NCBI RefSeq assembly: GCF_964213995.1
Contig: NC_135806.1
Location: forward strand, 21,390,001-21,454,000
Length of the DNA: 64,000 bases
DNA from: Mustelus asterias
Lineage: Eukaryota
Direction of reading: 5' to 3'
In this document: piece after piece, positions 14,241 through 54,859 of the stretch
Numbering within the stretch: the first letter of the stretch is position 1
Layout of the letters: every line of letters starts with the position of its first letter
The notes under the pieces: generated by a model
What the model was told of the DNA's origin: nothing
What the model saw: the letters and a program-made list of their open reading frames with translations, nothing else
Database searches by the model: none
Position numbers and translations under genes: made by a program

Positions 14241-14265
14241 ACCCAAGGGCCTGGCATCAACCGAC

Positions 14266-14540
14266 TCATAGAATCTACACTGCAGAAGCAGGCCATTTGG
14301 CCCATCGAGCCTGCACTGACAACAATCCCACCCAGGTCCTATCCCCGTAACCCCATATATTTACACTCCTAATCCCCCTGACACTAAGGAACAATTTAGC
14401 ATGGCTAATCCACCTAAACCACAAATCTTTGGATTGTGGGAGGAAAGCAGAGGAAACCTCACACGCGAGGAGAATGTGCAAACTCCACACAGACAGTCAT
14501 CTGAGGCCGGAATTGAAGCGGGTGCCTGACGCTGTAAGGC
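14266..14540 (-). mobile_element. HE1 V-SINE split by a Rex1 insertion (remainder at ~15265-15300)
   Basis: The head sequence gctgtaaggca|...|ggcagcagtgcgaaccactg continues across the Rex1 element. Confidence 0.85.
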
Positions 14541-15263
14541 AAAACAAATGAGACCATCATCGACTTCAGGAAGTGTACTGGAGGGAACGCCCCTGTCTAC
14601 ATCAATGGGGACGAAGTAGAAATGGCCGAGAGCTTCACGTTTTTAGGTGTCCCGATCACCAACAACCTGGACTTGTCCCTCCATGTGGACAGTATACTTA
14701 AGAAAGCCCACCAACACCTTTACTTTCTCAGGGGACTAAGGAAATTTGCCATGTCTGCTACAACTCTCACCAAGTTCGACAGATGCATCATAGAAAGCAT
14801 TCTTTCTGGCTGCATCACAGCTTGGTATGGCTCCTGCTCTGCCCAAGACCACAAGAAACTACAAAGGGTTGTGAATGAAGCCCAGTCCATCACACAAACC
14901 AGTCTCCCATCCGTTGACTCTGTCTACACTTCCCGCTGCCTCAGAAAAGCAGCCAGCATAATCAAGGACCCCATGCACCCCAGACATACTCTCTTCCACC
15001 TTCTTCCGTCGGGAAAAAGATACAGAAGTCTGAGGTCATATACCAATCGACTCAAAAACAGCTTCTTCCCTGCTGCCATCAGACTTTTGAATGGACCTAT
15101 CTCACATTAAGTTGATCTTTCTCTACACCCTATCTATGACTGTAACACTACATTCTCCACTCTCTCCTTTCCTTCTCTATGAACGGTATGCTTTGTCTGT
15201 ATAGCGCAAGAAACAATACTTTTCACTAATACATGTGACAATAATAAATCAAGTCAAATCAAA
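14541..15263 (+). mobile_element. Rex1/Babar LINE, 5'-truncated
   Basis: ORF 14622-15110 (FLGVPITNNL, KKAHQHLYFLR, IESILSGCITAWYG, RLKNSFFPAAIRLLN) and a 3' end acatgtgacaataataaatc(aaatc)n. Confidence 0.9.
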
Positions 15264-15427
15264 CGGCAGCAGTGCGAACCACTGTGTCACCGTACTGCCC
15301 CCCTCCTCCATAACCTCAAGAACACATTGTTCCCTGCTACATTCTGCACCCTATCCTTTCCTTCTCCCCTATGTACTCTATGAATGGTATGGTTTGTCAG
15401 TATGGTGCGCAAGAAACAAGAAACAAT

Positions 15428-16002
15428 AGGCCTCTCCCCCTTGGCAATGCCCACTGGGCAGTGCCAAGGGGGCGGGGCCTATTGTGGGCTGACCCTATGG
15501 ATGATCGGTGCGGGTGGTTGGTCCTGCTGCCATTTTGCAGATAGGATCAGGCACTTTGCCCCTTGGGCAGTGCAAGGGGGCACAGGCTGGCACTGCCAGG
15601 GTGCCCATGCCCAGGGGCACCACCACCTGCCGCCCGACCCCCTGGGGGGCCCCCGATTGCCCCCCCTTCATTCCGGCGGGGTCTCCCATTAGTTCCCTGA
15701 ATGTGGGGAGCTAGTCTGAACCTCGCCGCAATGAAATGGTAGGGTGGGAGCTTCATTCGGGACCTGAAAGATCCCAATAATTAATAAATATACATATTTA
15801 AAATGCATGCAGAAAAGATTTAAATTACTTACCTGCTTTACCGTCGGTTTCCAGCGTGGTCTGACCGGCAACTATTCGCCGGCTCTGGGAGATGTGCATG
15901 CGTTCCAGGCATAAGCGCAAATCCCTGTTCAAGGCCGCAGATGCGCATCTCCCACCGCGACCCGACAGAAAAATTGTGGGTCGCAATGGGAGAAGCGTGG
16001 CC
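15428..16002. mobile_element. GC-rich MITE inserted in a Rex1 3' UTR fragment (~15325-16052)
   Basis: Flanked by AAT on both sides. The Rex1 tail resumes after it. Confidence 0.7.
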
Positions 16003-16632: not shown

Positions 16633-18315
16633 ATTGTTATGTTTTTACTGTCAGAAAATATAAATAATGACATTGCATTAAGCTATTCAGTTGTGCTTGT
16701 TTAAGAAACATAACTGCATTTTAGCTGGTAATTGAAATGTAATCTAACCAGTGTCATTATGGGCACATCGGAGGCAAAATTTCCCCATTTATGCTCAATT
16801 GTGTATTTAACTGAAGTTCAAAGTTTTGCATTTTCCAGTCCGACTTGTAAGGTTTGCATCCACATTTCCTGAGCCCAGGAAGGGGCAATAGCTGAAGAAA
16901 GAGCAAGGGATGGATGATAAAGAAGCATTTGGTAATATTTTTAGTACAAATGAGTAATACTGGTAATGTTGAAACTAGGAATGAAACATGATTGCCGACA
17001 TCTTGCTGCCATTTACGCCGGCAGGATTGTCCCATTGACAGCATAATTCCACCTTGGGTTTCCCAGGGTTGAGGGGTGCATTCAATGGGAAACCCTGTTG
17101 GCAACAGCGGGACCATCAGATCCCACTGCCAATGAGCAGCGTACCGCCTCCCCCCACCACCAAACACACTGTGGAGAGGGAGGAAAATCCCACTGGTTAT
17201 CTTGTGCTATTTTGTTTGAAGCAGTGATGGAAAAATGCTCAGTTATTCAAGGTACTTCAGCAATTTTTAAAAAAGAATAATTGACAGTATGATATTTATC
17301 AGTCTTGATTTCACCCTCAGCTGCAAAGCAACAGCATTTATCTTCAACCCAAAGAAAGCTACTACAAGGAGCGACCAATCTTTCTGGCATGGATTTCCCC
17401 CTTCCCAGCACTACTTTCATTCTGGAGTCTGCTCAAGGGAATTTCTAGCATTTAGCAACAGGCAGGTCATTAAGCAACCAAACAACCAATCACATTGAAG
17501 GATTCTCACAACCAGCAATCCAGGAAGTAAAATCCACTTATCATTATTAAATTTTCATCATTTTGTTTTGGCAGCTGAATAAAGTTTGTGAGTTATCCAT
17601 GGGAATAAGGTGGAAACTGAAATATTACAAATAAACTACCTGTACTTCAAAATAATGCCATGGTGTCTATTGCATCAACCTTAGAGGACAGATAAGTGTT
17701 CAGTTTAACATTCCGTATGAAAGACAGCGGGTGAGATTCTTTGGCCTCCCAGCCATGTGTTTCCCGACGGTGCAAGATGGCGTGCTGTTCACTGGCGGCA
17801 AGATTCTCTGGTCCTGCCACGGCCAATGGGATTTCCCATTGATGTCACTCCACACCGCCATGGAACTTGCGGGCGGGGATGCTCTGCTGGTGGGATCGGA
17901 GAATCCCGCTGACGTGAACAGCCAGAGAATTCCAGCCGGCATCTCTGATGGTGCAGCCCTCTCTCAGTACTGCATTGGAATGTCAGGCTAGGTTTTGTGT
18001 TCAATTTCTGCAGTGGGATTTTCAACCGCGGTGTTCTGACTCAGAAACACGAGTGCTGCCCACAAGCTAAGACCGACAGTGAAAAAAATCAGATTTGAAA
18101 TTATCAGCTGGCTGAAGGAGTAGAAGTGAAGGGAGCTTCTCCAAATGGAAAAGGATCTTTCGGAATTACAACACTGTCAAACTAAAGGTATTGTAGTAGG
18201 GCTAACCCAGAGAGTGTGGGCCGCAGTGGGAGAGGAATGAATGGAAAGGGTTAAACACAGTAAGAAGTCTCACAACACCAGGTTAAAGTCCAACAGGTTT
18301 ATTTGGTAGCAAATA

Positions 18316-18352
18316 CCATCAGCTTTCGGAGCACTGCTCCTTCGTCAGATGG
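18316..18352 (-). ncRNA. Antisense-arm hammerhead motif with G at the predicted cleavage position
   Basis: The reverse complement reads CCAU-CUGACGA-A-GGAGC-AGU-GCUCC-GAAA-GCUG-AUGG. Confidence 0.6.
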
Positions 18353-18373
18353 AGTGGATATCTGCTCTCCACT

Positions 18374-18410
18374 CCATCTGACGAAGGAGCAATGCTCCGA
18401 AAGCTTATGG
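18374..18410 (+). ncRNA. Minimal hammerhead ribozyme motif (PLE-type)
   Basis: CCAU-CUGACGA-A-GGAGC-AAU-GCUCC-GAAA-GCUU-AUGG: catalytic core, stem II, palindromic stem III and stem I (CCAU/AUGG). Confidence 0.75.
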
Positions 18411-19466
18411 TATTTGCTACCAAATAAACCTGTTGGACTTTAACCTGGTGTTGTGAGACTTCTTACTGTGCTTACCCCAGTCCAACGCCGGCATCTCCAC
18501 ATAAGGGTTAAACAGACAGCACTGTAGTATCCACACTCACTGCAGGCACACACATGACAAATTACAAATAACTACACCCCAGATGGCACGAACACACAGC
18601 AACAATGAGAATTGATATCACTTATCAAGGCTCCAAATGTCTTGGGGAGCCATTGTGCCTGTGGAAAACTAATCAAATGTCAGAGAGATGGGACAATTTA
18701 ACATACCATCAAAATCAGTTTAGCAAACACATGCTTTGATATTGTAAACAGATAGACAGAAAATGTCCAGAAAATGATTAAAGTTAAAGCAGAAAGGGAC
18801 AGGGCAATGGATTCGCATAATGTGATCAAAAGCAGAACTGTAACCAATTCAAAGTAACAATCTGATGACCTAATCGAAATGCAGCACTTTGTAACGCAAA
18901 AAAGAATAAGAATATGTAAGAACTGATGATTAGCAGAGTAGCTCGGAAGCAAGCTGTTGTTACACGAGTTCTGCTCTCCCTCACGCATGTTGAATAAAGT
19001 TGTTTTTGTTGAAGTTTTACATGGTCTCGGAAGACTCAGTTTGTTCATTCCCTCCTCCAGGTATCAACCTGTTAACTATTTGACTCGCTATAGATGCTAT
19101 CTGACCTGCTGAATATTTCTAATATTTCCTGTTTCTGTCACAACTAAACTGTTTAGATGAACATCAGTGCATTCCAGTACCTTGGAAAATTAACCACAGA
19201 AATATAGGAGGACATAGCAGGGCTAAAAGAGGAAAAGATGAAACAAAGTGAGTTTATTTATTAGTCACAAGTAATGCTTACATTAACACTGCAATGATGT
19301 TACTGTGAAATTCTGGCGCCTGTTCGGGTCAATGCACATCTTTCAGAACGTGGGAGGAAACCAGAACAACCGGAGGAAACGCAGACACTGGGAGAATGTG
19401 CAAACTCCACACAGACAGTGACCCAAGCCGGGAAACGAACCCGAGTCCCTGGCGCTTTGAAGCAGA

Positions 19467-21465: not shown

Positions 21466-22500
21466 CTTTTTGATTTGAGTTATTATTGTTACATGTATTA
21501 GTATACAGTGAAAAGTATTGCTTCTTGTGCGCAATACAGACAAAGCATACCGTTCATAGAGAAGGAAAAGAGAGAGTGCAGAACATACTGTTAGAGTCAT
21601 AGCTAGGGTTCAGAGAAAGAGCAACCTAATGCACGGAAGGTCCATTCAAATGTCTGATGGCCGCAGGGAAGAAGCTGCTCTTGACTCGATTGGTACGTGA
21701 CCTCAGACTTTTGTATCTTTTTCCTGATGGAAGAGAGTATGTCCAGGGTGCGTGGGGTCCTTAATTTTGCTGGCTGCTTTTCCGAGGCAGCAAAAAGTCT
21801 AGACAATGTCAATAGATGGGAGGCTGATTTGAATGATGGACTGGGCTTCGTTCACGACTCTTTGTAGTCTATTGTGGTCTTGGACAGACCAACAAAAACA
21901 GAAAAATGCTGGAAAATCTCAGCAGGTCTGACAGCATCTGTGGAGAGAGAATAGAGCCAATGTTTCGAGTCTAAATGCCCCTTAGAAGCACTTCATAATG
22001 ATGGATGTCAGAGCCACCAGATGATAATCATTAAGGCACGCCGTCTGGCTTTTCTTTGGTACTGGGATGATTTTCGTTTTCTTGAAGCAGATAGGGATCT
22101 TAGATTGGTGTAAAGAGAGGTTAAAGATGTCTGCAAATACCCCCACCAGCTGATCTGTGCAGCACCTAGGTGCTTGTCTGCTTCCCATGGATTCACCTTT
22201 GAGAAGGCTGCTCTGATATCAGCAATGATGATCTTTGATACAGGTTCGTCCGAGGCTTCTGGGATGGAGGGCGTGCTCATGCTGACCTCTTGCTCAAAAC
22301 AGGCATAGAATGCATTGAGCTCATTGGGGAGGGGTGCATTGGAGCCGGCAATTTTATCTGCCCTAATCTTGTAGCCGGTTATGTCTTGCAGACCTGGCCA
22401 TAGTCAACGGGAGTCCCTGTGGCCAGCCTGGGATTCTAGCTTGGTCTGATACTGTTTTTTGGCACCTTTGATGGATTGCCACAGATCATATCTGGCCTTT
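21466..22500 (-). mobile_element. Rex1/Babar LINE, internally deleted, with a PLE-type repeat at ~21890-21983
   Basis: Minus-strand [17 protein letters not shown] and [17 protein letters not shown], plus the Rex1 3' UTR. Confidence 0.85.
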
Positions 22501-23569: not shown

Positions 23570-23895
23570 TCATAGCACTACCTCCTCACAGCACCAGGGA
23601 CCCAGGTTCAATTCCAGCCTTGCGTTATTTCAGTGTGGAGTTCACACATTCTCCCTGTGTCTGCACGGGTTTCCTCCAGATGCTCCAGTTTCCTCCCACA
23701 GTCCAAACATGTGCAGATTAGATTGATTGGCCATGCTAAATCACCCCTTAGTAACCCAAGATGTGTAGGTCAGGGAGATTAGTGGGGTAAAGATGTGGGG
23801 TTGCAGGAACAGTGCCTGGGTGAGATGTCCTGTTGGACAGTCAGTGCCGACCCGATGGGTCGAATAGCCTCCTCTGCACTATGCGGATTCTATGA
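23570..23895 (+). mobile_element. HE1 V-SINE
   Basis: tRNA head, V-domain and CR1-type tail ending attctatg. Confidence 0.85.
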
Positions 23896-24439
23896 ATCTT
23901 TGTTCATTAACGGACACCTACTACTCAAAAAACCATTTTTCCTGAAAGTAAACATGAAAAAATTCAACCTTTTGAATCCCACTTTCATCCAGTTCAAGCC
24001 TTAAAAAAATACAACTAACATTAAAGTTTATTTATTGGTCACAAGTAAGTCTTACATTAACACTGCAATGAAGTTACTGTGAAATTCCCCGAGTTATCAT
24101 AGTCCAGTGCCTGTTCGGGTCAATGCACTTAACCAGCACATCTTTCAGACTGTGGGAGGAAACCGGAGCACCCAGAGGAAACCCACGCAGACATGGGGAG
24201 AACGTGCAAACTCCACACAGACAGTGACTCAAGCCGGGAATCAAACCCGGGTCCCTGGCGCTGTGAGGCAGAGTGCTAACCGCTGTGCTACCGTGCATGT
24301 TCAATGATTGAACTGTGCTGGACCACTGGGAATTTTAAAAAATAAGAAACCAATTCAGGTCAATTGCATTGTCAAAAAAATGTGGCATAAAACAGGTTCA
24401 CCTATAACCGACTGCAAATTTGAGACTCAATGGAGGTAT

Positions 24440-26742
24440 AAGGGGGCAAAGCTTGACCTCATCTTGGGAAATAAGGAAGGGCAGGTGTCAGAAGTGTTAA
24501 TGAGGGATCACTTTGGGACCAGTGACCATGATTCTATTGGTTTTAAGATAGCTATGGAGAACGATAGGTCTGGCCCAAAAGTTAAAATTCTAAATTGGGG
24601 CAAGGCCAATTTTGATGGTATCAGGCAGGAACTTTCAAAAGTTAATTGGGGGAGTCTATGGGAAGGCAAAGGGACGTCTGCTAAGTGGCACGCTTTCAAA
24701 AGTATGTCAACCAGAGTTCAGGGTGAACATATTCCTCTTAGAGTGAAGGGCAAGGTTGGTAGAAGTAGGGAACCCTGGATGACTTGGGATATTGAGGCCC
24801 TGGTCAAGAAGAAGAAAGAGGCACATGACATGCATAGGCAGATGGGATCAAGTGAATCCCTTGAAGAGTATAGGGGGTGTAGGAGTAGAGTTAAGAGAGA
24901 AATCAGGAGGGCAAAAAGGGAACACTTTTTTGGCAGATAAGGCAAAGGAGGATCCAAAGAGCTTCTACAAATACATAAAGGGCAAAAGAGTAACAAGGGA
25001 GAAAGTAAGGCATCTTGAGGATCAACAAGGTCATCTATGTGCGGATCCACAAGAGATGGGTGAGATCCTAAATGAATATTTCTCATCAGTACTTACTGTT
25101 GAGAAAAGCATGAATGTCAGAGAACTTGGGGAAATAAATAGTGATGTCTTGAGGAGTGTACATATTACAGAGAAGGAGGTGCTGGAAGTCTTAAAGCGCA
25201 TCAAGGTAGATAAATCCTAGGAGATTGTGGGAGGCTAGGGAGGAAATTGCGGGTCCCCGAGCCGAGATATTTGAATCATCGATTGTCACGGGTGAGGTGC
25301 CTGAAGATTGGAGAGTGGCAAATGTTGTGCCTTTGTTTAAAAAGGGCTGCAGGAAAAAGCCAGGGAACAGCAGGCCAGTGAGCATCACATCTGTGGTGGG
25401 TAAATTGTTGGAAGGTATTTTGAGAGACAGGATCTGCAGGCATTTAGAGACGCAAGGACTGATTAGAAACAGTCAGCATGGCTTTGTGAGTGGAAAATCA
25501 TGTCTCACAAATTTGATTGAGTTTTTTGAAGGGGTAACCAAGAAGGTAGATGAGGGCAGTACAGTCAACGTTGTCTACATGGACTTTAGCAAGGCCTTTG
25601 ACAAGATACCCCATGGTAGGCTGTTGCATAAGGTTAAATCTCATGGGATCCAGGGTAAAGTATCTAAATGGATACAAAATTGGCTTCCTGACAGAAGCCA
25701 GAGGGTGGTTGTAGAGAGTTGTTTTTCAAACTGGAGGCGTGTGGCCAGCGGTGTGCCTCAGGGATCAGTGCTGGGTTCACTGTTATTTGTCATTTATATT
25801 AATGATTTGGATGAGAATATGGGAGGCATGGTTAGTAAGTTTGCAGATGATACTAAGATTGGTGGTATAGTGGACAGTGAAGAAAGTTATCTCCGATTAC
25901 AACGAGATCTTGATCAATTGGGCTGACGAATGGCAGATGGAGTTTAATTTAGATAAATGCAAGGTGATGCATTTTGGTAGATTGAACCAGGGCAGGATTT
26001 ACTCAGTTAATGGTAGGGCGTTGGGGAGAGTTGCAGTTCAAAGAGATCGAGGGGTACACGTTCATAGCTCCTTGAAAGTGGCGTCACAGGTGGACAGAGT
26101 GGTGAAGAAGGCATTCAGCATGCTTGGTTTCATCGGTCAGAACATTGAACACAGGAGTTGGAATGTCTTGTTGAAGTTGTACAAGACCACACTTGGAATA
26201 CTGCGTGCAATTCTGGTCACCCTATTAAAGAAAGGATATTATTAAACTAGAAAGAGTGCAGAAAATATTTACTAGGATGCTACCGGGACTTGATGGATTG
26301 AGTTATAAAGAGAGGCTGGATAGACTGGGACTTTTTCCTCTGGAGCAGAGGAGGCTGAGGGGTGACCTTATAGAGGTCCATGAAATAATGAGGGGCACAG
26401 ATCACCTGGATAGTCAATATCTTTTCCCAAAGGTAGGGGAGTCTAAAACTAGAGGGCATAGGTTTAAGATAAGAGGGGAGAGATACAAAAGTGTCCAGAG
26501 GGTCAATTTTTTCACACAGAGGGTGGTAAGTATCTGGAACAAGTTTCCAGAGGTAGCAGTGGAGGCGGGTACAATTTTGTCTTTTAAAAAGCATTTAGAT
26601 AGTTACATGGGTAAGATGGGTATAGAGGGATATGGGCCAAATGCGGGTAATTGGGATTAGTTTAGGGGTTTAAAAAAAAAGGGTGGCATGGACAAGTTGG
26701 GTCGAAGGGCCTGTTTCCATGCTGTAAACCTCTATGACTCTA
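24440..26742 (+). mobile_element. CR1 LINE ORF2, 5'-truncated and frameshifted
   Basis: LDLILGN, SDHDSI, YMDFSKAFD, GVPQGSVLG, KFADDTK and FFTQRVV motifs, ending ctctatgactct. Confidence 0.95.
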
Positions 26743-28589
26743 AGTACCAATACCTCTCAGATTTTCAGTGGTATAATAGTCGTTGCATGGATGACTGGTA
26801 ATCGCTGATTTCTCACATGATTGTACATTAAATAAGGGAGATTGCATACTATGCTTGATTGAAAGTGCTTAGGGTCTAAACTGGCCAAACACATCAGTAA
26901 GGCTCCAGTGAACTTAAACGCAAGTAAAGCAGCGTCAAGTCTTACACTCAGTAAAAAATCAGAACTTGGCAGCAGATTCAAAGAGAAAGGCAAACTTCAC
27001 TTGTGACGTGTTTGTATCCAAAAATGTAAGAAATGAAAATAATAATACAGTCCAATTTCATAGCAGTTCATCAGTTTCCTGGCAAACTGGTGGAGCAGCA
27101 TGAAGCAGTGGCAGATACCACATCACCTTTTTCTTTATTCATTCGTGGGACATTGGCGTCGCTGGCTGGCCAGCATTTATTGCCCATCCCTATTCGCCCT
27201 TGGAGGGCAATTGAGGGTCAACCACATTGCCGTAGCTCTGGAGTCACATGTAGGCCAGACCGCGTAAGGACGGCAGATTTCCTTCCCTAAAGGACAGTAG
27301 TAAACCAGATAGGTTTTTCTGACAATTGACAATGGTTTCATGGTCATCGGTAGATTTTTCATTCCAGATATCTTTTACTGAATTCAAACTCCACTATCTG
27401 CCCAGGCAGGATTCGAACCCGATGTCCCCAGAACATTCACTGAGTCTCTGGATTAATAGTGTGGCGATAATACCACTGGGCCATCGCCTCCCTCCCACCC
27501 ACCCCCTAATGAGACCAGGCAAAAGACATTTAGAAAAAGCCACATGAAGTTAAGAATAATAAAATTCTCTTTAATCTTCTCCAATTTAAAAATAGCATTC
27601 AGATTTTGAATGCTTTACACCCCCTTTGTCGGCCAGAAGCTGTGAAATATGTTTGTCATGGGTGTTGATGCGAGATAAAGCCATATGGGGGGGAACATGA
27701 TGTGAAAAATGCCCAATTGACAGGCTAAATGGAAGATTAGTGACATTACAGAGATTGGATACAGTAACTTAATGGTAAAATATGAGGGAATTATCCAAGG
27801 AAATTATATCATACCCTACTTAGTGAAGTTCATGGACTGCATCTGACCTCAAAAGGAAGTCATGGGGAACTTGCACAGAGGTCACCAGAGAAAGGAGAAG
27901 TGCTGAGAAATACCAAGTGGGAATGTTGCACAGATTAAGATAAGTAGAAACAGGAAAGGTAAGAAAACCCGTAAAACTGCACACCAACTAAAAAGACGTG
28001 AAAGAAAGGCTTGCATTTGTATAAAGCACCATTCACAACCACAGGGGATCCCCAAGCACTTTTTAAACTGCAGTCACTATTGTAATGTAGGAAATGTCAA
28101 ATTGTACACAGCAAGAATTCACAAAAAAACAATGATTGTGACGAGATAAACTGTTTGTTTGATATTTACTGAGAGATAATTAGCCAGGACACTGGAAGAA
28201 TGCCTCTGCTCTTCTTCAAACAATGCTTCGGGTTCATTTACACAGGATCTCCATCTTGTCTGAAAGACCGCACTTCCAACAATGCAACACTCCCTCAGCA
28301 CATCAGAGATGTCAACCTGGATATGTACATGAGCCTTTGCAGTGAGCATAACAGCACAGCCTTTTGACTCAAACGAAAGTTGGCACGTTCAATATAGCAA
28401 ACAAGTTGGTCAGGTCAGAGAAAAAGTCATAGTTACAATTGCATGAACATAGTAAGACTCAGAAAGGACTCTGTCCAGGAAGATGGATAGCCATTTTTGT
28501 TGGAAAGATGCCTATAGGAAGCTGAATTATTTATCAGGAGCAAAAGCAGTGCACATTGGAAAACTATTAAAAGGACGATTGAGGGGACA

Positions 28590-29122
28590 TTTAATTTGAT
28601 TTGATTTATTATTGTCACTTGTATTAACATACAATGAAAAGTGTTGTTTCTTGCGTGCTATACAGACAAAACATACTGTTCATAAAGAAGGAAACGAGAG
28701 AGTGCAGAATGTAGTGTTACAGTCATAGCTAGGGTGTAGAGAAAGATCAACTTCATGCAAGGTAAGTCCACTCAAAAGCCTGACAGCAGCAGGGAAGAAG
28801 CTGTTCTTGAGTCGGTTGGTACGTGACCTGAGACTTTTGTATCTTTTTTCCGAAGGAAGGTGGAAGAAGAGAATGTATGGGGTGCGTGGGGTCCTTACTT
28901 ATGCTGGCTGCTTTGCTGAGGCAGCAGGAAGTGTAGACAGTGTCAATGGATGGGAGGCTGGTTTGTGAGATGGATTGGGCTACATTCACGATCTTTTGTA
29001 GATCCTTGTGGTCTTGGGCAGAGGAGGAGCCATACCAATCTGTGATACAATCAGAAAGAATGCTTTCTATGATGCATCTGTAAAAGTTGGTGAGAGTCGT
29101 AGCTGACATGCCAAATTTCCTA
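28590..29122 (-). mobile_element. Rex1/Babar 3' fragment
   Basis: RKFGMSATTLTNFYRCIIESIL and a (gattt)n tail. Confidence 0.9.
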
Positions 29123-29359
29123 GGACCCGGAGATAGTTGTCCATAAAGCACTGAATAACACAGGAATTAATCATCTAAGTCACATTCAGAAGGATTCTTC
29201 AAAACTCAAAAAGAGAACAAACAAAATAATATCCTCTGGTATCCCAATATCTGATGAAGGAAGGGATTTGATGAAAACTGAGGATAAAAATAAGTGGCTA
29301 GTAATTTGGTGTGAAAGTTATGTCACTTGCTAAATAACTGAGAACATTTTCTAAACAGT

Positions 29360-29675
29360 AATCATAGAATCCCTGCAGTGCAGAAGGAGGCCGTTCAGCC
29401 CTTTGAATCTACACCAACCACAATCCCATCCAGACCCTATTCCCATAACCCCATGCAGTTACTCTAACTATTCCCCCTACACTAAGGGGCAATTTAGCAT
29501 GGCCAATCCACTTATCCCACACATCTTTGGACTATGGGAAGAAACCGGATCACCAGGAGGAAACCCACGCAGACAGGGGAGAACGTGCAAACTCCATACA
29601 GACAGTGACTCAAGGTTGGAATTGAACCCGGGTCCCTGGCACAGTGAGACAGCAATTCTAACCACTGTGCTGCCC
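29360..29675 (-). mobile_element. HE1 V-SINE, full length
   Basis: Head, V-domain and tail are all present. Confidence 0.9.
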
Positions 29676-30905
29676 ACCAGTAAGGACTGGTGCAGAAGAG
29701 ATGGGCTGTATCTTTACAAAGTGCATACAGCAAGGCTTGCAAGCATTGAGGCAGCAGTTGAGAATAATTGAAACTAGACTGTGAGGGAGAAAGGGTAGAT
29801 TGGCGGGAATTGAGGGGTGGAACATGGATCCTACAGGATAATGAGCAAAGTGTGATGTGTCAGCAGTGTCATCAAAATAAGGTTAATTTCCCCATCCTTA
29901 AAAGGAGTTCACCAAAAAACTTTTATGTTGCATTCACGTGAATCCGAATGTAGTTCTGAATTTAGGTTATTATCAAAGGCATGTCTTCAACATTGACTCA
30001 CTCTCTGTTCAGATCACATGATTGAGAACAGGGCTCAAATGTAACCACTGCAACATCCCTGAGATGCCAGCAGCAGCAGGAATGGCTGCTGACGTTGGGA
30101 CCTTATTTTCACTCCAAACCCAGCCCCCAGATAGTCTCCATTACCCCGACACAAAGGTGGACTTAATATTGCTCCACTGGTATTCAGTGCCAACTTGTCA
30201 TCCTTCAAAACCTGTGTCATTTTAGCGATGATGGGAAGGAGGGGAGATGGGAGGAATTGGGAATTCCCCCTCCCATCCCTTTGTCATGTTAAGCACCAAA
30301 TGGTTGTAGTTACAGACACTCTGTCCATCACAAGGGAATCCCTGTAAATCAAAGATTAACAGAGACAGAATAGAGACCATGCATTCCCAGCTGCTTTGGA
30401 GAGAAATCACTCCAAAAGGCACACATGCATCATATACTTGAAATGGGAACAGAACTGGAGGCAAATACGATAAGAGAAGGACATGGCAGGAACATCAGAA
30501 CAAGAAACATGCACTTAAATTTAATGCAGCAGTATAAAGCTATAATGAACGATAATTAAGGAAGAACAAATTAAGTCAGAAAGGAAACTAGTGTCATCCC
30601 CATAGAGCAGAACAAATAAAGAAGTTGCTGCTGTGGGAAGTTGACCTATTTTGTTTGAGCATCTTTAATGTGAAAATAATATAGCAACACCCGGGGCACA
30701 GTCCAGACTCCCAGTTCAGAATAAGCGTCAGGAATCATAGAATCACTACTGTGCAGAAGGAGGCCATTCGGACCATCGAGCCTGTACCAACTCTCCGACC
30801 TAGCATCTTATACAGGTCCACCCTCCTGCTTATCCGAGTAACCACAGTAAGAAGTTTAACAACACCAGGTTAAAGTCCAACAGGTTTATTTGGTAGCAAA
30901 AGCCA

Positions 30906-30942
30906 CACAAGCTTTCGAAGCTCGAAGCCCCTTCTTCAGGTG
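30906..30942 (-). ncRNA. Minimal hammerhead ribozyme in the Penelope terminal repeat
   Basis: The reverse complement reads CAC-CUGAAGA-A-GGGGC-UUCGA-GCUUC-GAAA-GCUU-GUG. Confidence 0.75.
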
Positions 30943-31151
30943 AGTGGGAATTCTGTTCACAAACAGAGTTTATAAAGACACAGACTCAATTTACATGAAT
31001 AATGGTTGGAATGCGAATACTTACAACTAATCAAGTCTTTAAGAAACAAAACAATGGGAGTGGAGAGAGCATCAAGACAGGCTAAAAAGATGTGTATTGT
31101 CTCCAGACAAGACAGCCAGTGAAACTCTGCAGGTCCACGCAACTGTGGGCG

Positions 31152-32526
31152 TTACAAATAGTGTGACATGAACCCAACATCCCGGTTGAGGCCGTCCGCG
31201 TGTGTGCGGAACTTGGCTATCAGTTTCTGCTCAGCGACTCTGCGCTGTCGTGTGTCGCGAAGGCCGCCTTGGAGAACGCTTACCCAAATATCAGAGGCCG
31301 AATGCCCGTGACCGCTGAAGTGCTCCCCAACAGGAAGAGAACAGTCTTGCCTGGTGATTGTCGAGCGGTGTTCATTCATCCGTTGTCGCAGCGTCTGCAT
31401 AGTTTCCCCAATGTACCATGCCTCGGGACATCCTTTCTTGCAGCGTATCAGGTAGACAACGTTGGCCGAGTTGCAAGAGTATGTACCGTGTACCTGGTGG
31501 ATGGTGTTCTCACGTGAGATGATGGCATCTGTGTCGATGATCCGGCACGTCTTGCAGAGGTTGCTGCGGCAGGGTTGTGTGGTGTCTTGGTCACTGTTCT
31601 CCTGAAGGCTGGGTAGTTTGCTGCGGACAATGGTCTGTTTGAGGTTGTGCGGTTGTTTGAAGGCAAGAAGTGGGGGTGTGGGGATGGCCTTGGCGAGATG
31701 TTCGTCTTCATCAATGACATGTTGAAGGCTCCGGAGGAGATGCCGTAGCTTCTCCGCTCCGGGGAAGTACTGGACAACGAAGGGTACTCTGTCCACTGTG
31801 TCCCGTGTTTGTCTTCTGAGGAGGTCGGTGCGGTTTTTCGCTGTGACGCGTTGGAACTGTTGATCAATGAGTCTAGCGCCATATCCTGTTCTTATGAGGG
31901 CACCTTTCAGCGTCTGGAGGTGTCTGTTGCGATCCTCCTCATCCGAGCAGATCCTGTGTATACGGAGGGCTTGTCCGTAGGGGATGGCTTCTTTAACGTG
32001 TTTCGGGTGGAAGCTGGAGAAATGGAGCATCGTGAGGTTATCCGTGGGCTTGCGGTACAGTGAGGTGCTGAGGTGACCGTCCTTAATGGAGATGCGCATG
32101 TCCAAGAATGCAACCGATTCCGGAGAGTAGTCTATGGTGAGCCTGATGGTGGGATGGAACTTGTTGATGTCATCATAGAGTTGTTTCAGTGATTGTTCAC
32201 CATGAGTCCAAAGGAAGAAAATGTCATCGATGTATCTAGTGTATAGCATCGGTTGAAGGTCCCGTGCGGTGAAGAAGTCTTGTTCGAACCTGTGCATGAA
32301 GATGTTGGCATATTGAGGTGCAAATTTGGTCCCCATGGCTGTTCCGTGTGTCTGGATGAAGAACTGGTTGTTGAAGGTGAAGATATTGTGGTCCAGGATG
32401 AAGCGGATGAGATGTAAAATTGCATCTGGAAACTGGCAGTTGTTGGCGCTGAGCACTGAGGCCGTTGCAGCAATGCCATCGTCATGGGGGATGCTGGTGT
32501 AGAGTGCCGAGACATCCATTGTGAGA
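31152..32526 (-). CDS. PLE reverse transcriptase plus GIY-YIG endonuclease (N-terminally truncated, uninterrupted)
   Basis: TMDVSALYTSIP, GTAMGTKFAPQYANIFM, RYIDDIF, Cys linker PCRSNLCKTC and VVYLIRC...WYIGETMQTLRQRMNEH. Confidence 0.92.
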
Positions 32527-32869
32527 TATCCGAGTAACCCCATTAACCATTATCTTTGGATAATAAGGGTCAATTCAGCATGGCCAGTCCACCTAACCTG
32601 TACACCTTTGGAATGTGGGAGTAAACCGGGAGCATCTGGAGGACACCCACGCAGACACGAGGAGAACATACAAACTCCACACACAGACAGTCACCCAAGA
32701 CTAGTGAGACAGTTTGTTCTGACATGAGAACAGGAAGAGGCCTTTCAGCTCCTTAAACGTCAAAACAGGAATACAACATAACGGGGATGAACCTGCTTTG
32801 CATTGATTTGAATGTATTTAAATATTATCAACCAGGCCCTTCGCCAGGTATTGACCCCTCACCACATAT

Positions 32870-34911: not shown

Positions 34912-36930
34912 TTTTTGAAATTTATTTTTATTGAAGATTTTTCCCATTTTTACAAACAATGCAGCAGACCTTCAAGGATTGGTACAGTGCGGCATAATCA
35001 TTTACATACAGAAAGAGACAAGAGAGCACCAACACTGTTGGTTCGGATTATTCATTATTTATTACAGGCTGCGCCTTCAAAGATACAAACAATGAAAGGG
35101 TGTTTCAGAGACTGGGCGGAAACACGGTAACAAGATAAAGCCATGAGTACATGACATAACGGCACACGCTCTTACTTACAGGATACTAGAGATGGAGCCA
35201 CGTAACTTACATTCCAGGATTCCCAAAGTAGCTACTGCCATTATGTATTCAGCCAGGTAGAATATAGAATATTGACACAGGTGTAGAAAAGGCTGATCAA
35301 CCAAAGATTCTTGCACCATGCTTTGACATGAACTAAAGCATACTTGCCCCATCTCCAGCTATATCAGGGATGTCATTGACATAAAACAATGCCTTTTCCC
35401 AGGATATGTGCTCTGTCTGTACCTTTACAGGAGTCCATTGGAGATTCTATGACCCCATAATAACACAATTACTGAAACAAACTACGCAATGCCATTCATT
35501 CTAAGGGGGTTTTCTGCACCAGCTGCGAGGACTCATTGGGCCATAGCCACAAACTCTACAACAAACCACCCACCCACCTCCCTGCAATGGCATGACTCAC
35601 ATTGGCCATGACAGGAGTAAAGTATACCACATAGTATATGCCACCATTATATATGCAAGGACTATGAGAAGAAAACACAGAAAAATATTGCACAGTCCGA
35701 GTGCCATACAACCTACCCAGTGCACTCCAACATTTTCAAGCTCTTTAAGGATATTGAACTAAGATTAAACTTTTACACAGGACCAGAAGCAATGCAGGTA
35801 GTCTCCTGTGCCACCTTGCATCCCTGGCAAATGAGGATATAGTAGGATCAAATCTGTGTCTTCAGCTTGGAGTAATTAAAGGAACACGCTGAGGAATTCA
35901 TTCCATTATAAACAAATGGACATCCCTGGTTTTCAAAGGATAATAGGCGACATTCACCTCAGCTCATATACTAGATCACCCCTGTCAACTTGATAAATAA
36001 CATCACAAAATCAAAAATGGAGTGCAACAACAATGGGTAAAGTCCAGGACTAGCGATGAATTGCAGATAATGAATCCAAATTATTGCCATCCACAGAATT
36101 TAGAGGAGAATTTAGTAGGATTGCCGAACAGCCTTAAGGATGTGTCAGGTGTCACCCTCAGGGTAGCACTATAAAGCAGGGCATCCTGCATTCAGATAGC
36201 TCTCAGACACTTTCCAGTTTCATCGCAGCCTCTGCGACCAAAGCTATGAAAACGCATGATTACCGGCTTCAAGTTTCTGTGTGTCCAGATCACCAACAAC
36301 CTGTCCTGGTCCCACCACGTTGACACTATAGTTAAGAAAGCCCACAAATGCCTCTGCTTTTTCAGGAGGGCGAGGAAATTTGGCATGTCCACTACAAATC
36401 TCACCAATTTTTACAGATGCACCATAGAAAGCATCCTTTCTGGTTATATCACAGCTTGGTATGGATCCTGCTCTGAACAAGACCGCAAGAAACTACAAAA
36501 GTTTCTGAGCAAAGCCCACTCCATCATGCAAACTAGCTTCCCATCCATTGATTCTGTCTACACTTCCCACTGCCTCTGAAAAGCAGCCAACATAACCAAG
36601 GACCCCACGCACCCTGGACACACTCTCTTCCACCTTCATGCATCAGGAAAAAGAAACAAAAGTCTGAGGTCCGTAACAATCAACTCAAGAACAGTATCTT
36701 CCCTACTGCCATCAGACTTTTGAATGGACCTACCTCATACTAAGTTGATCTTTCTCTACACCCTAGCTATGACTGTAACACTACAGTCGCAAGAAACACT
36801 ACTTTTCACTGTCTACTAGTACATGTGACAATAATAAATCAAATCAAAAAATCAAATCATTTTATCCCAAACTTAACCAGATATCTTCCAGGGACATAAT
36901 AGTTTTCGCTCCAAGGTTAGGTACTTATGG
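34912..36930 (-). mobile_element. Degraded L1-clade LINE 3' part, interrupted by Rex1
   Basis: Minus-strand CQGCKV..GDYLHCFWSCVK (CCHC C-terminal knuckle) near 35770-35830 and an A-rich AATAAA end near 34920. Confidence 0.6.
36262..36860 (+). mobile_element. Rex1/Babar 3' fragment
   Basis: FKFLCVQITNNLSW...TIESILSGYITAWYG and an aaatc tail. Confidence 0.9.
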
Positions 36931-41522: not shown

Positions 41523-41689
41523 NNNNNNNNNNNNNNNNNNNNNNNNNNNNNNNNNNNNNNNNNNNNNNNNNNNNNNNNNNNNNNNNNNNNNNNNNNNNNN
41601 NNNNNNNNNNNNNNNNNNNNNNNNNNNNNNNNNNNNNNNNNNNNNNNNNNNNNNNNNNNNNNNNNNNNNNNNNNNNNNNNNNNNNNNNN
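41523..41689. other. Assembly gap
   Basis: Run of N. Confidence 1.
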
Positions 41690-42633: not shown

Positions 42634-42953
42634 AATCATAGAGTCCCTACAGTACAGAAGGAGGCCATTCAGCCCATCGAGTCTGCATCGACCACAATCC
42701 CACCCAGGCCCTATCCCCATAACCCCACACATTTACCCTCCTAACCCCCCGACACTAGGGTTAATTTAGCATGGTCAATCAACCTAACCTGCACATTTTT
42801 GGAGTGGGAGGAAACCAGAGCATCCGGAGGAAACCCACGTAGACACGGGGAGAATGTGCAAACTCCACACAGATAGTAACCTGGGGCCCACATTGAACCA
42901 GGATCGCTGGCGCTGTGAGGCAGCAGTGCTAACCACTGTGCCACCGTGCCACC
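42634..42953 (-). mobile_element. HE1 V-SINE, full length
   Basis: ggcacggtggcacagtggttagcactgctgcctcacagcgccag head with a CR1-type tail. Confidence 0.92.
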
Positions 42954-42957
42954 CAGC

Positions 42958-46590: not shown

Positions 46591-47679
46591 TGCATTCAGT
46601 TGACTGTAAACATCAAGACGATGGGACTGTAGTCTTTGGTTTCAGGACGGCAGTGATTTTGAAATAACTGCAGGCATATGTATCCCAAGGTCAAGGGATT
46701 TGGAGCTGAATTTGGCAAGCCACGTGCATCCATTTTGGCCCTGGTTCTCGAGGATTTCTGAGTCAGTGCCACTGATCCCATTAGTCTTCTGTTTCCAGGT
46801 TGCTATTGATGCTGTGCTTGATGAAGGTCACTGAAAAGGTGGTAGGTAGAGTGGCTTTTTCCAGTGAGAGCTTGAGAAGCTTTCTCACTCCAGTTTTCAG
46901 TGATGGTCATTACGTTTGAGTTGGTTCCAAGGTAGGCCACAAAGGCATTTTCATTGACCTTTGCATCTCATGGGGTGGGGATTGGTTGGGGGGGGGGGGG
47001 GGGGGGGGAGGAGGAGGGATGGTGTTTAGGGATCAGTATGGTAGTGTCAAACTGGCAAGCCAGAGAAGCAAGTTCCAGGACTTTCTGCTAGAGTGTCAGG
47101 AATCTCATTTTTTTTTGTACTTTCTTTCCATCATGCTAATTTGTCTTTGTCTGGGGAATGTACATTGCTGTGTCTGGGTCTTGAGTGACATTAAACTTTG
47201 AAGTGACATATAACATCTATGCAATACTGGCAGTGTTATCTGAAACACGCCTGGCACAGAGATCATTATGCATGAAATTTGTCAGACCAAGCTGTACAAG
47301 AACAGTTCATGGATTGTAATTACTGTATTAAATTACATCGGGGAGAAAGTGTGGGCACATGGCCAAATATACATGCGGTTTAAAAATAACAAGCAAATTG
47401 CTAAGCTAAGCAATGTTAAAGTAAAAAAAAATCCATTCAGAACTAAACAAAAATAGAACACTTAAAGTGAAAAGCAGTCAGAATGAGAACAAACTGGTTT
47501 TATGGATATGATTCAAATTGGAAATTCTACTGAATGAAAAGTAAATGTTAAAATAAACAGCAATCTGTATGCTTAGGCATGGGAAGCTAATCTAACACTG
47601 CGGCATGATCAACTTACAAAGAACGAAATACTACAGTGAGCTAGCTTACTGAAATGTAGATCTGGGAGCTTTAAAAATG

Positions 47680-48008
47680 GGCTGCACGGTGACACAGTGG
47701 TTAGCACTGCTGCTTCATAGCACCAGGGACCTGGGTTTAATTCCAGCCTTGGGTCACTGTCTGTGTGGAGTTTGCACGTTCTCCCCGTGCCTGCGCGGGT
47801 TTCATCTGAGTGCTCTGGTTTCCTCCCACAGTCCAAAAATGTGTCGGTTAGGTTGATTGGTCATGTTAAATTGACCCTTAGTGTCAGGGGGATTAATAGG
47901 GTAAATACATGGGGTTACAGGGATAGGGCATGGGTGGGATTGTTGTTGATGCAGGCTCGATGGGCCAAATGGCCTCCTTCTGCACTGCAGGGATTCTATG
48001 ATTCTATG
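47680..48008 (+). mobile_element. HE1 V-SINE, full length
   Basis: Head, V-domain and an attctatgattctatg tail. Confidence 0.92.
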
Positions 48009-50699: not shown

Positions 50700-53600
50700 A
50701 GAAATATGCTGACGTATAGATAATTGTGGATGAGAACGGCCATTTGGTCCATCTTAGTTCATGCCTCCAGAAAGATGCTAACGTTCCTCACTGCAACATC
50801 AAACTAATTCAGAAATTATTCCAGAGGTAATGCTTCCAATAATATTTCCATGATTCCATTTCATGTATTGATACTTTGAAAAGAACTGCTGCCTCATTGC
50901 AACTGGTGATGGTCTTGCAATTAAACATAAAATCATTTACCACATTTTTCCAATATAATTTACTATTTTATCTATCTCCATAAAATCACCTTTCAGATGC
51001 CTCTTTTCAAAGCTGAAAAATTCCAAGCTTTCTGCTAAGTCAAGTATCTATCTTTCACGATCAGACATGAAACTTCGCATTCCCTCCAGTGTTTGAATGT
51101 CTTACTTGTGTCTTTAGAAGCAGAACTGGACACTGTATGCAAGATGTAGCCTAATCAGAGTACCCTATAGTTTAATGATATCATCTAATTTGTATTCTAT
51201 TCTTGTGGTGATATTGTTTCACATTCTATTGGTTTTGTGTATTGTTGCACTGAATTAGTTGGATTTGTTGAGCATTGAGTCTAAGGCTGAAATTTTTACT
51301 GCCGGGTCAGGAGCACAGATTCGGGACATTTCCCAGCTCCACAAACTCAACCTTGGAGGGAGTACCCAGAGGTTCCCTGGGAGTAAAGCCAGGTGACGCC
51401 AGAATGAGGGTGGAGGCTGCTAGGTGCGGAGGTGAGCTGGATGGAAGATCAGACTTGGTGCCCCAGCACTTTGTTAAAGTTTTTGAAAAAAAATAGTCCA
51501 ATAGCCCACCTCACCTGCCCCGCCCACCCCAACCCCCAGTCCCAACACACTCGCCATCCATTCTCAATGCTGAACCAGTCATCTCATGCCTCCACCCCAC
51601 ATGGTCCCGCACACCCTCTACCCAATCGCATGACCTCTCATACCCTCCCTGCCAACCTAGGCCCTCCACCCACTCCCCCAATGGCCCCTCTACATTCGAT
51701 GCTATCTGATGTCCCTCTACCTACCCCTTCCAGCCCCATACCAAACCATGTCTTCCACTCATCCCATGTCCTTTTATTGAACCTATGGCAACTTAGTGTA
51801 GACTCATGCCCCCACCCACTACCCTTTGCTCTTATACCCTCCATGTCAACTCATTTTGCATCCACCATGGGAAAACTATAGGAGCCAAACTAACAAAGTA
51901 ATTTGTCTATTGATGATGTCATGATTTTTTTAAAAATGAAAGTCATTCAATGCATTAAAATTCTTTCAACTAATCATTTATGAAAACAATCATTTTGGAT
52001 GTATAACTACTTGGAGCTGTCAGTGAAACTTTGATTTCATTTCATTTATTGTCACGTACTCAGATTCAGTGAAAAGTATTGTTTCTTGTGTGTTTTACAG
52101 ACAAAACATACTGTTCATAGAGTACATAAGGGAGAACGAAAGGAGAGGGTGCAGAATATAATGTTACAGTCACAGCTAGGGTGCAGAGAAAGGTCAGCTT
52201 AATATATGGTAGGTCCATTCAAAAATCTGATGGCAGCAGGGAAGAAGCTATTCTTGGGTCAGTTGGTAGGTGGAAGAAAGAATGTCCAGGTTGAATGGGA
52301 TCCTTGATTATGCTGAGTGCTTATTTAACAGGCATTCCACTGTGATAATATTGGGTTGCAAAATGCAGCACAAATCCAATAAATATAACTCTAAGGCTTT
52401 TGCCAACAGACAGAGTAAAATAGCAAGCACTGTTTTTTTTTTAATTTATAATTTTTTTTAATTTAAAGCCCAGCAGCGTTGAGTCTCATGAAACCTTGGA
52501 CCTGTCCAATCTCATCAAATCAGTCAAAGCTTATTGAATCTGTCAATGAGGTTTGACAGACAATAGACAGCTTGAAAGCGAGTTGATATTTTGACAAGCT
52601 TAACAGTTATTTGATAACTTTTACAGTTCTTTGACATCATGACAGTTCTTGGACAGCTTTGACAGCGCAGTTAGTGCACTTTTAAATGCACATTCATGCC
52701 TAATTTAACAATTGCAAAAGGCACCTGGCCTCTCCCAAAGGTGTCATGGGGGTCAAGGGGCACTTTACTCTCCAAAATGGTATCCTGGCTATCCAAATAA
52801 ATCCACAAAGTTCAGACCTGCTCCTACCAGGTCGCATCTGCACACTTTGGGTTTTAGACAACAACCTCATCAAAATCACACAAATTGTACCTGCTGTTGA
52901 TTTAAATGAGTGCTGTTTAGAATCTGCCCCCATCACCTCTGACAGAGGCCATGTTCAGGGGTGGAAGTTCTGGATTCAGGCCTCTGCACAATTTTCACAT
53001 GAAAATTCAGCCCCAAGATTCCCAAACTCTCCAGTAGCTTCATTCTTAGCCATTTCATTCAAGTGTACTTTCCCTTCCTCAGTACAGATCATTACATTTG
53101 TCAATACTAATTGCCAGAAACATTAACATATTTGAATTAAATCTATATAGCTGACTTTTGGATTGCCTTCTGATTCTCTTGTACTTTGCTAATATCTGAC
53201 AAATTGTATTGTGTTTCCTATGGCCAAGCCATTGATCCACAATATCTGTGTGGAGTTTGCGCATTCTCCCTTGTGTCTGCGCGAGTTTCGTCCGCGTGCT
53301 TCGGTTTCCTCCCATTGTCCAAAGATGTGCTGGTTAGGTGGATTGACCATGCTACGTTGCTCCTTTGTGTCAGGGGAACGAGCTAGGGAAAATGCATGGG
53401 GTTTTGGGGAAAGGGCCTGGGTGGGATTGTGGTCCTTCCACACTGCTGGATTCTATGTTCTATCTGAATTGAAATAAGTAATGATGCCAAAATACCACCT
53501 TATCTCTTTTATATTGTACCTGTTATTATGTTTGTGTCTTTGATCAGTTTCTTATCAACATTTATGATACCACCAGTCATCCTCACCAGTTTGAACCTTT

Positions 53601-54479: not shown

Positions 54480-54825
54480 GAGACACAGTGGCACATGCTG
54501 CCTTTCAGTGCCAGGGACCCAGGTTCAATTCCGGCCTTCAGTGACTGTGTGGAGTTTGCATGTTCTCCCAGTGTCTGCGTGGGCTTCTTCTGGATGCTCC
54601 GGTTTCCTCCCACAGTTTAAAGATGTGCAAGTTAGGTGGATTGGCCATGCTAAATTGCCCTTTAGTGCCCCAAAATGTGTAGGTTAGGTGTGTTGGCCTT
54701 GGTAAATGTGCAGGGTTGCAGGGATAGTGCGAAGGGTTGAGTCTGGGTAAGATGCTCTTTCAGACAGTTGGTGCAGACTTGATGGGCTGAATGACCTCAG
54801 TCTGCGCTGTAGGGATTCTGTGATT
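54480..54825 (+). mobile_element. HE1 V-SINE
   Basis: Head, V-domain and tail are present. Confidence 0.88.
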
Positions 54826-54859
54826 CAATTCTCCTGGCTGAAATAGAATAAAGGTACTT

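Follow-up and report, generated by a model that had tools for sequence, protein, structure and literature searches.

Insertions of endonuclease-bearing (EN+) Penelope-like elements (PLEs) show a recognisable architecture. In the accounts given for Adineta Pen2a/Pen2 (PMC3846280), for form C of D. virilis (PMC2377424) and in the general scheme of PMC8557442 (Fig. 2), a 5'-truncated copy is joined head-to-head to an inverted copy, with a tail of 30-40 nt on one arm, a target site duplication (TSD) round the whole insert and microhomology or a palindrome at the junction. The formation of these inverted termini is called undefined in PMC8557442. For a PLE protein studied in vitro, nicking and extension of both target strands is described, with reverse transcription starting at two sites that delimit the tail (PMC11167929); nothing on how the inverted arms form was found in the parts of that paper drawn on here. 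PLE terminal repeats also carry hammerhead motifs. Minimal hammerheads (min-HHRs) of metazoan PLEs are described, with dual copies ~100-700 bp apart on opposite strands among them, and dispersed motifs are tied to truncated PLEs (PMC4209133). According to the same source, their monomers showed no cleavage and their dimers low cleavage (Cervera and de la Pena 2014, PMC4209133), and the hammerhead of PAc, a PLE of Anolis carolinensis, is reported to cleave only with the protein present and to be dispensable for insertion in vitro (PMC11167929).

The window analyzed here is the whole 64,000-nt stretch of NC_135806.1 from 21,390,001 to 21,454,000, and the genome searched comprised 3.68 Gb. The unit under study occupies 18258-18502 of the window and is flanked by two 12-bp direct repeats (18246-18257 and 18503-18514, unstranded) that are 100% identical. 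It consists of 245 bp (101+9+101+34), and the perfect 12-bp TSD, the unit size and the 9-nt loop reported in a first-pass annotation of this DNA were all borne out. The right arm (18368-18468, plus strand) carries the 3' terminal repeat of a PLE (pLTR end) in sense orientation and is followed by a 34-nt tail (18469-18502, plus strand), which is present on this arm only and unpaired in the fold. The paired part of the left arm spans 101 bp (18258-18358), with mismatches to the right arm at 18320 and 18334. It belongs to an inverted copy of the same terminal repeat (18258-18369, minus strand), 94-96% identical to the copies L098 and L095; its start lies 35 nt in from the tail end, and it extends ~146 nt into the element. 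The loop (18359-18367, unstranded) is not foreign DNA but the parent's upstream sequence on the left arm, the parent being continuous through it in L028, and the arms are joined via a 2-nt overlap at 18368-18369. The inverted arms and the tail had been recognised before to within two bases, the lengths of 103 bp and 32 nt given for them taking in two bases of the TSD that pair by coincidence with the first bases of the tail.

The predicted fold of the unit is a 101-bp hairpin with 2 mismatches, a 9-nt loop and a 34-nt free tail, with folding energies of -188 kcal/mol for the plus strand and -201 kcal/mol for the minus strand. A 91-nt piece centred on the junction gave a folding z of -8.07, i.e. 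beyond chance. The folding supports the previous expectation that a read-through RNA would form a hairpin of ~100 bp. There was no tandem array at the locus, and no empty site among the matches listed when four contig sets were searched for the joint across the element.

The right arm and tail are 97.8% identical to both pLTRs of the near-full-length copy L098 and 99.3% identical to the end of L095, which bears an ORF. In L098/L099 the tail ends immediately before the ATG of the ORF. This near-full-length locus (C1:29530440-29534671) belongs to the unit's subfamily, carries tails on both of its head-to-head arms and has an ORF broken after 335 aa. Full elements among the fetched copies read pLTR-ORF-pLTR, several of them with an extra inverted arm, and open frames of at least 900 aa were present in 10 of the 91 ORF matches listed. 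The intact frames are held by a sister subfamily, with 87% identity between its pLTR and that of the unit. An RVT_1 domain was recognised by Pfam in both the ORF located in the window and the full ORF. The GIY-YIG score of the window ORF was 20.8 bits against a cut-off of 22.6 and was absent for the full ORF, the motif being read by eye; a PDB search with the ORF gave 0 matches. The 913-aa frame of the sister subfamily contains a CX4CxxC linker. A CX2-5CxxC linker between RT and EN is described in PMC8557442 for Neptune and Nematis and as absent in Penelope/Poseidon. The motif in the parent ORF supports the earlier Neptune-type assignment.

A 5'-truncated copy of the sister subfamily lies in the window itself at 30844-32526 (minus strand). 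It contains the RT/GIY-YIG ORF's end, the 3'UTR and the hammerhead end, has no tail, ends at the internal start site and is flanked by a 13-bp TSD (30831-30843 and 32527-32539). The copy has a stop-free frame of 465 aa and is 98% identical to many genomic copies, and the family looks recently active. At ~30947-30975 (minus strand) a TATAAA of this subfamily was seen by eye ~29 nt upstream of an initiator-like CCACT, on the 5' side of the hammerhead; the TATA motif is absent from the unit's subfamily.

The CUGACGA...GAAA core noted previously in each arm was located at 18378-18402 on the plus strand and 18348-18324 on the minus strand. The right-arm motif, a minimal type I hammerhead at 18374-18410 (plus strand), has a layout that matches the min-HHR traits given in PMC4209133, with stem I at 18374-77/18407-10, the core at 18378-84, an extra A at 18385, stem II at 18386-98 and GAAA at 18399-402. 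The core, the extra nucleotide after position 9, a palindromic helix III and a covarying helix I are all present, together with the 4-bp helix I and the G10.1-C11.1 listed for PLE minimal hammerheads. The palindromic helix III needs a dimer, and the cut is predicted after 18406. Taken by itself, the loose core pattern carries little weight, with 16 matches in the window vs 4.1 expected, and the hammerhead reading is based instead on covariation: among 209 motifs drawn from the fetched loci, some of which overlap, the closing pair of helix I is U-A in 151 and C-G in 54. An Rfam scan of the window gave no hammerhead match at E<=1 and 6 microRNA-family matches, all under the gathering score. A (TG)n(TA)n run adjoining 167 N at 41523-41689 yields spurious microRNA matches.

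The left-arm minimal type I hammerhead (18316-18352, minus strand) has a G at position 17 (18320), which occurs in none of the 209 other motifs. Under the NUH rule, a G at this position does not cleave. The CUU triplet of the right arm fits the rule and the left triplet with G17 does not, so that, judged from sequence, the left hammerhead is probably non-cleaving. The proposal that a transcript of either strand would carry a hammerhead is correct for the core only. Read-through RNA of the unit has a single sense core, enclosed in the 101-bp hairpin, and self-cleavage is predicted to be unlikely because this sole core needs a dimer partner and would be locked in the hairpin. Arm ends showed no peak where cleavage is predicted, at 96 nt from the end of the tail, the bins from 70 to 139 each containing 5-10 ends. 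The hammerheads would travel as passengers of the terminal repeat.

The unit is one member of a very large population. The 32-nt tail pattern had 9,070 exact genomic copies, vs 0 for the reversed control, and the hammerhead anchors of the unit's subfamily group had 40,534 exact copies. Similar short foldbacks, searched with a looser pattern, numbered 2,086 genome-wide and hold about one tenth as many arms as there are anchors. All position-sampled sets were taken from the start of contig C1. From the first 100 tails listed there, 90 were fetched and 89 used (L092 was not orientable), and these comprised 59 inverted-plus-tail copies, 20 solo copies and 10 others. The arms of the 59 inverted copies ranged from 34 to >1,600 nt, with a median sense arm of 155, in a continuum up to ORF-containing copies, and the unit is the short end of this continuum. 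The start of their second arm lies 22-38 nt in from the end of the tail; a TSD of at least 8 bp was found in 51 of them, with a mode of 12 bp and lengths mostly of 8-16 bp. Target-junction microhomology was short and noisy in the 33 copies with a TSD of at least 9 bp. The first 100 hammerhead anchors, inspected by eye, included 17 head-to-head pairs with spacings of 31-2,371 bp; the spacing in the unit is 29.

The junctions were mostly private to each copy. The exact 39-nt junction of the unit was present at 2 loci genome-wide. The second, L122, is 92% identical and has a different TSD, and since it carries the markers of another subfamily in both arms, independent recurrence of the join on a different parent is most likely. 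Among the first 50 short foldbacks by position, 46 distinct junctions were counted by eye, the repeated ones being one palindromic join found three times, one short join found twice and one complex join found twice. Thirty copies with one identical sense arm had many different junctions and lengths.

The two arms of a copy are coupled in length. Their lengths agreed within 10 nt in 22 of the 59 copies (for example 992/993, 400/398 and 236/238), compared with a permutation mean of 3.8 and a maximum of 13 in 20,000 permutations, and the Spearman coefficient was 0.74. They are coupled in sequence as well, the median divergence between arms of the same copy being 0.019 vs per-copy means of ~0.05-0.2 to other copies (43 copies). 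About four of these 43 copies (L038, L040, L041 and L120, by eye) have arms with different subfamily markers, which suggests two RNA templates in one event; single-template fold-back is therefore not the sole route. Perfect or near-perfect palindromic junctions were observed in L047 (centred on loop II), L104 (on the helix III palindrome), and L097 and L110 (on other self-complementary words). Several junctions contain short copies of nearby sequence, which we take to resemble polymerase-theta joining.

Arm ends also pile up at one side of the hammerhead. In a sample from 60 of 87 planned regions, 16 of 70 anchors (14 insertions) had the arm end 2-10 nt upstream of the anchor and none at 11-18 nt, and further upstream the loss was ~0.4% per base. 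The Poisson probability of the pile-up was 2e-4 at 0.8% per base, a rate set after the fact. A degenerate pattern located 1,761 such arm ends across the genome; they fall on several bases and not on a single one (first 100 by eye), and the unit's own arms end at +1 and +12, flanking the pile-up zone. Arm ends were frequent throughout 70-139 nt from the tail and fell after 140, and instead of a spike the pile-up may mark where a broad zone of high loss has its 5' edge. The accumulation of ends immediately 5' of the hammerhead points to this size class as a preferred by-product, for which either a transcription start or a pause of the RT could account. Sought as the trace of a cap and counted by eye, a G stood before the arm in 12 of the 20 ends in one class, and in the neighbouring class likewise in 12 of 26. 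A splice acceptor was disfavoured as the cause, the commonest variant having no AG there. A cluster of 8 ends at 165-167 nt was left out of the count as an alignment artefact, the sequence of the element running on upstream. No published truncation hot spot of this kind in PLEs was found in the literature searched.

The unit is very probably a single integration product of an abundant EN+ PLE with a Neptune-type linker and not an independent element. It shows every feature of a PLE insertion that was tested, i.e., an inverted 5'-truncated copy, a one-sided 34-nt tail and a TSD round the unit, with the arms meeting head-to-head between the 12-bp repeats, one ending at the tail and the other 35 nt inside it. 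The first-pass annotation had offered an extreme 5'-truncated inverted PLE insertion as one of its two readings, and this is the one supported by arms that correspond to the parent's terminal repeat and by junctions and arm lengths that vary among copies. Weighing against a by-product, no copy of the unit's own subfamily was found to have its ORF intact: that of L098 breaks off after 335 aa, L095 is 5'-truncated, and none of 30 loci reaches more than 16 nt into the ORF. When arms >200 nt were considered alone, lengths agreed within 20 nt in 5 of 21 copies against a null of 2.3 (p = 0.068), which is not significant and also counts against this reading. The complex junction shared by L156 and L157, the copies with differently marked arms, the sub-threshold GIY-YIG match and the lack of an empty site among the matches listed weigh on the same side.

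In the mechanism that we propose for such a product, the RT-endonuclease would make a 12-nt staggered cut, as extrapolated from the description in PMC11167929 of a protein from another clade. Each 3'-OH would then prime cDNA synthesis on element RNA, with starts at the tail end for one cDNA and ~35 nt further in for the second, which would account for both outer ends of the unit. The two cDNAs would usually be primed on one template and would not stop independently, because the lengths and sequences of the arms are coupled. One cDNA might fold back on a short microhomology, copy itself and anneal to the other, a route that we favour slightly; the other route, to which we give just under an even chance, is that both cDNAs would run off the same template end and then be end-joined.

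A stronger version of the integration-product reading, which we offer tentatively and consider doubtful as it stands, is that PLE replication yields the mini-foldbacks as a short, programmed product, akin to strong-stop cDNA. It is suggested by the pile-up of arm ends in one zone together with the coupled arm lengths. The 5' end would be fixed in many templates, at a distance of ~140 nt from the end of the tail and 12-20 nt upstream of the core of the hammerhead, and would most plausibly be the pLTR transcription start. Synthesis primed at the tail of the 5' pLTR would run off there, followed by fold-back or end-joining, and the result would be thousands of uniform ~245-bp hairpins mimicking a MITE family. 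If this is true, about ten thousand natural reaction products are available, enough to settle how PLE inverted termini form.

Another explanation grants that most foldbacks are by-products and supposes that a small share were re-copied later, by way of tail-primed read-through RNA, or that ectopic gene conversion spread them. L156 (C1:50425824) and L157 (C1:51897046) share a complex 20-nt junction in the same orientation to the tail, although their TSDs differ, and they are 94.6% identical and 1.47 Mb apart on C1. A complex junction between different TSDs implies that rare re-copying or conversion occurs, and on these sequences either is possible for this pair. However, their junction occurs only twice genome-wide and is the one such pair in 50 loci, and the unit has no such sibling, as L122 differs at subfamily markers in both arms. 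We consider this explanation unlikely, with a small but real chance.

For PLE palindromes joined head-to-head, self-priming with antisense RNA as the template has been proposed (Arkhipova et al. 2013, PMC3846280); it would produce the mirror arm and accounts for near-equal arms and for palindromic joins such as those of L047, L097 and L110. It is nevertheless improbable here, since alone it does not explain the offset of 22-38 nt between the tail end and the start of the second arm seen in 59 copies, which instead agrees with the second of the RT start sites on sense RNA described in PMC11167929, nor does it explain copies whose arms differ in markers.

The other reading offered previously was a self-propagating non-autonomous family, retrozyme-like or SINE-like, in which the whole foldback would be transcribed, processed by the hammerheads and reinserted by the PLE protein. 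The abundance of the foldbacks is in its favour: the 40 best BLAST matches were near-full-length at 91-100% identity, 30 that were inspected had their own flanks, 2,086 foldbacks are of comparable size, and pLTR sequences are described as mobilisable in trans (PMC3846280). The best-match list, however, is biased toward likeness to the query. Many copies with an identical loop junction and different TSDs had been predicted for such a family; sought genome-wide, the exact junction of the unit was found at its 2 loci only, on different parental haplotypes, and the 46 distinct junctions in 50 foldbacks and the varied junctions and lengths of the 30 copies sharing a sense arm also disagree with it. 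The locus has no tandem array, and the opposed cores are unable to form the cis dimer that min-HHRs require according to PMC4209133. Differing loop junctions are also the outcome that the first-pass annotation had set down as counting against such a family. This reading is largely refuted, and we consider it very improbable. A DNA transposon of the MITE or foldback type, bearing terminal inverted repeats, is practically dismissed, for although the unit is small, non-coding, near-palindromic, TSD-bounded and numerous, its ends are asymmetric with a tail on one side only, size and centre differ per copy, TSD length varies (mostly 8-16 bp), and the identity of its arms, a retroelement pLTR, with an RT-encoding parent refutes it.

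Several other repeats were observed in the window. Two decayed LINE-type RT fragments, 68% alike, lie at 1543-2781 and 24308-26743, with an RVT_1 match at 25210-25923. Five related repeat fragments, 76-86% alike, are found at 14538-15263, 21469-22403, 28590-29166, 36266-36850 and 52030-52272. The ORF at 14538 matches ALKBH8_N, a domain known from LINE C-termini. A SINE-like repeat of ~300 bp has >15 copies or fragments in the window, including 42634-42955, 47678-48004, 29360-29670, 14263-14541, 23573-23904 and 54484-54828. A 63-nt near-palindrome (89%) at 15423-15485 is unrelated to the unit.

As a single locus the unit is ordinary, being one among thousands of truncated insertions with a layout already described for PLEs. 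The population is more useful than the locus, since coupled arms, mostly shared markers and the pile-up of ends constrain the step that forms the inverted terminus. The units also call for caution in annotation, being neither MITEs nor retrozymes although they resemble them. Near-perfect hairpins of ~100 bp, at least 2,086 in number, could supply double-stranded RNA, if transcribed.

Compared with retrozymes, the unit is likewise short, non-coding, PLE-related and equipped with a type I hammerhead, as described for metazoan non-LTR retrozymes (PMC7229834; bioRxiv 10.64898/2026.07.22.740005). Retrozymes in these accounts are head-to-tail tandem repeats with a canonical hammerhead per unit, their definition asking for one in at least two consecutive units, and are expressed as circRNA, whereas here there is one head-to-head pair with minimal hammerheads and no fixed monomer; tandem units and fixed-monomer propagation are both absent from the unit. 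Symmetric TIRs, a uniform size and a fixed TSD length, the features of MITEs, are absent as well. The in vitro system of PAc (Frangieh et al. 2024, PMC11167929) shares with the present element the two RT starts that define the tail, the nicking and extension of both strands as reported there, and a hammerhead in the pLTR near the ORF start. PAc belongs to the Poseidon clade, however, and its tail is placed ~111-118 nt inside the ORF, while here the tail ends just before the ATG.

The min-HHR pairs of PMC4209133 differ from those of the unit in spacing, the cores here being ~30 bp apart, and in the G17 of the left core. The main-text passages of that paper considered here name fish, coelacanth, Xenopus and reptiles and not this family, which its supplements may list. 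No paper on the family was found in the literature searched, in which subscription titles are thinly covered, and a preprint supplement may list it. The closest match is with the published EN+ PLE insertions, from which the unit differs in that its arms are cut to the last ~135-146 nt; it has no ORF because both arms are cut to this length. The TSD is 12 bp in the unit and 8-10 bp in Adineta as given in PMC3846280, and the copy number, with 40,534 hammerhead anchors in the subfamily group, is far above that of the insertions described in these sources. Hence, the layout of the unit and its opposed hammerheads are already in print (PMC3846280, PMC8557442, PMC4209133), and the coupled arm lengths and the pile-up of arm ends 5' of the hammerhead go beyond the published accounts found.
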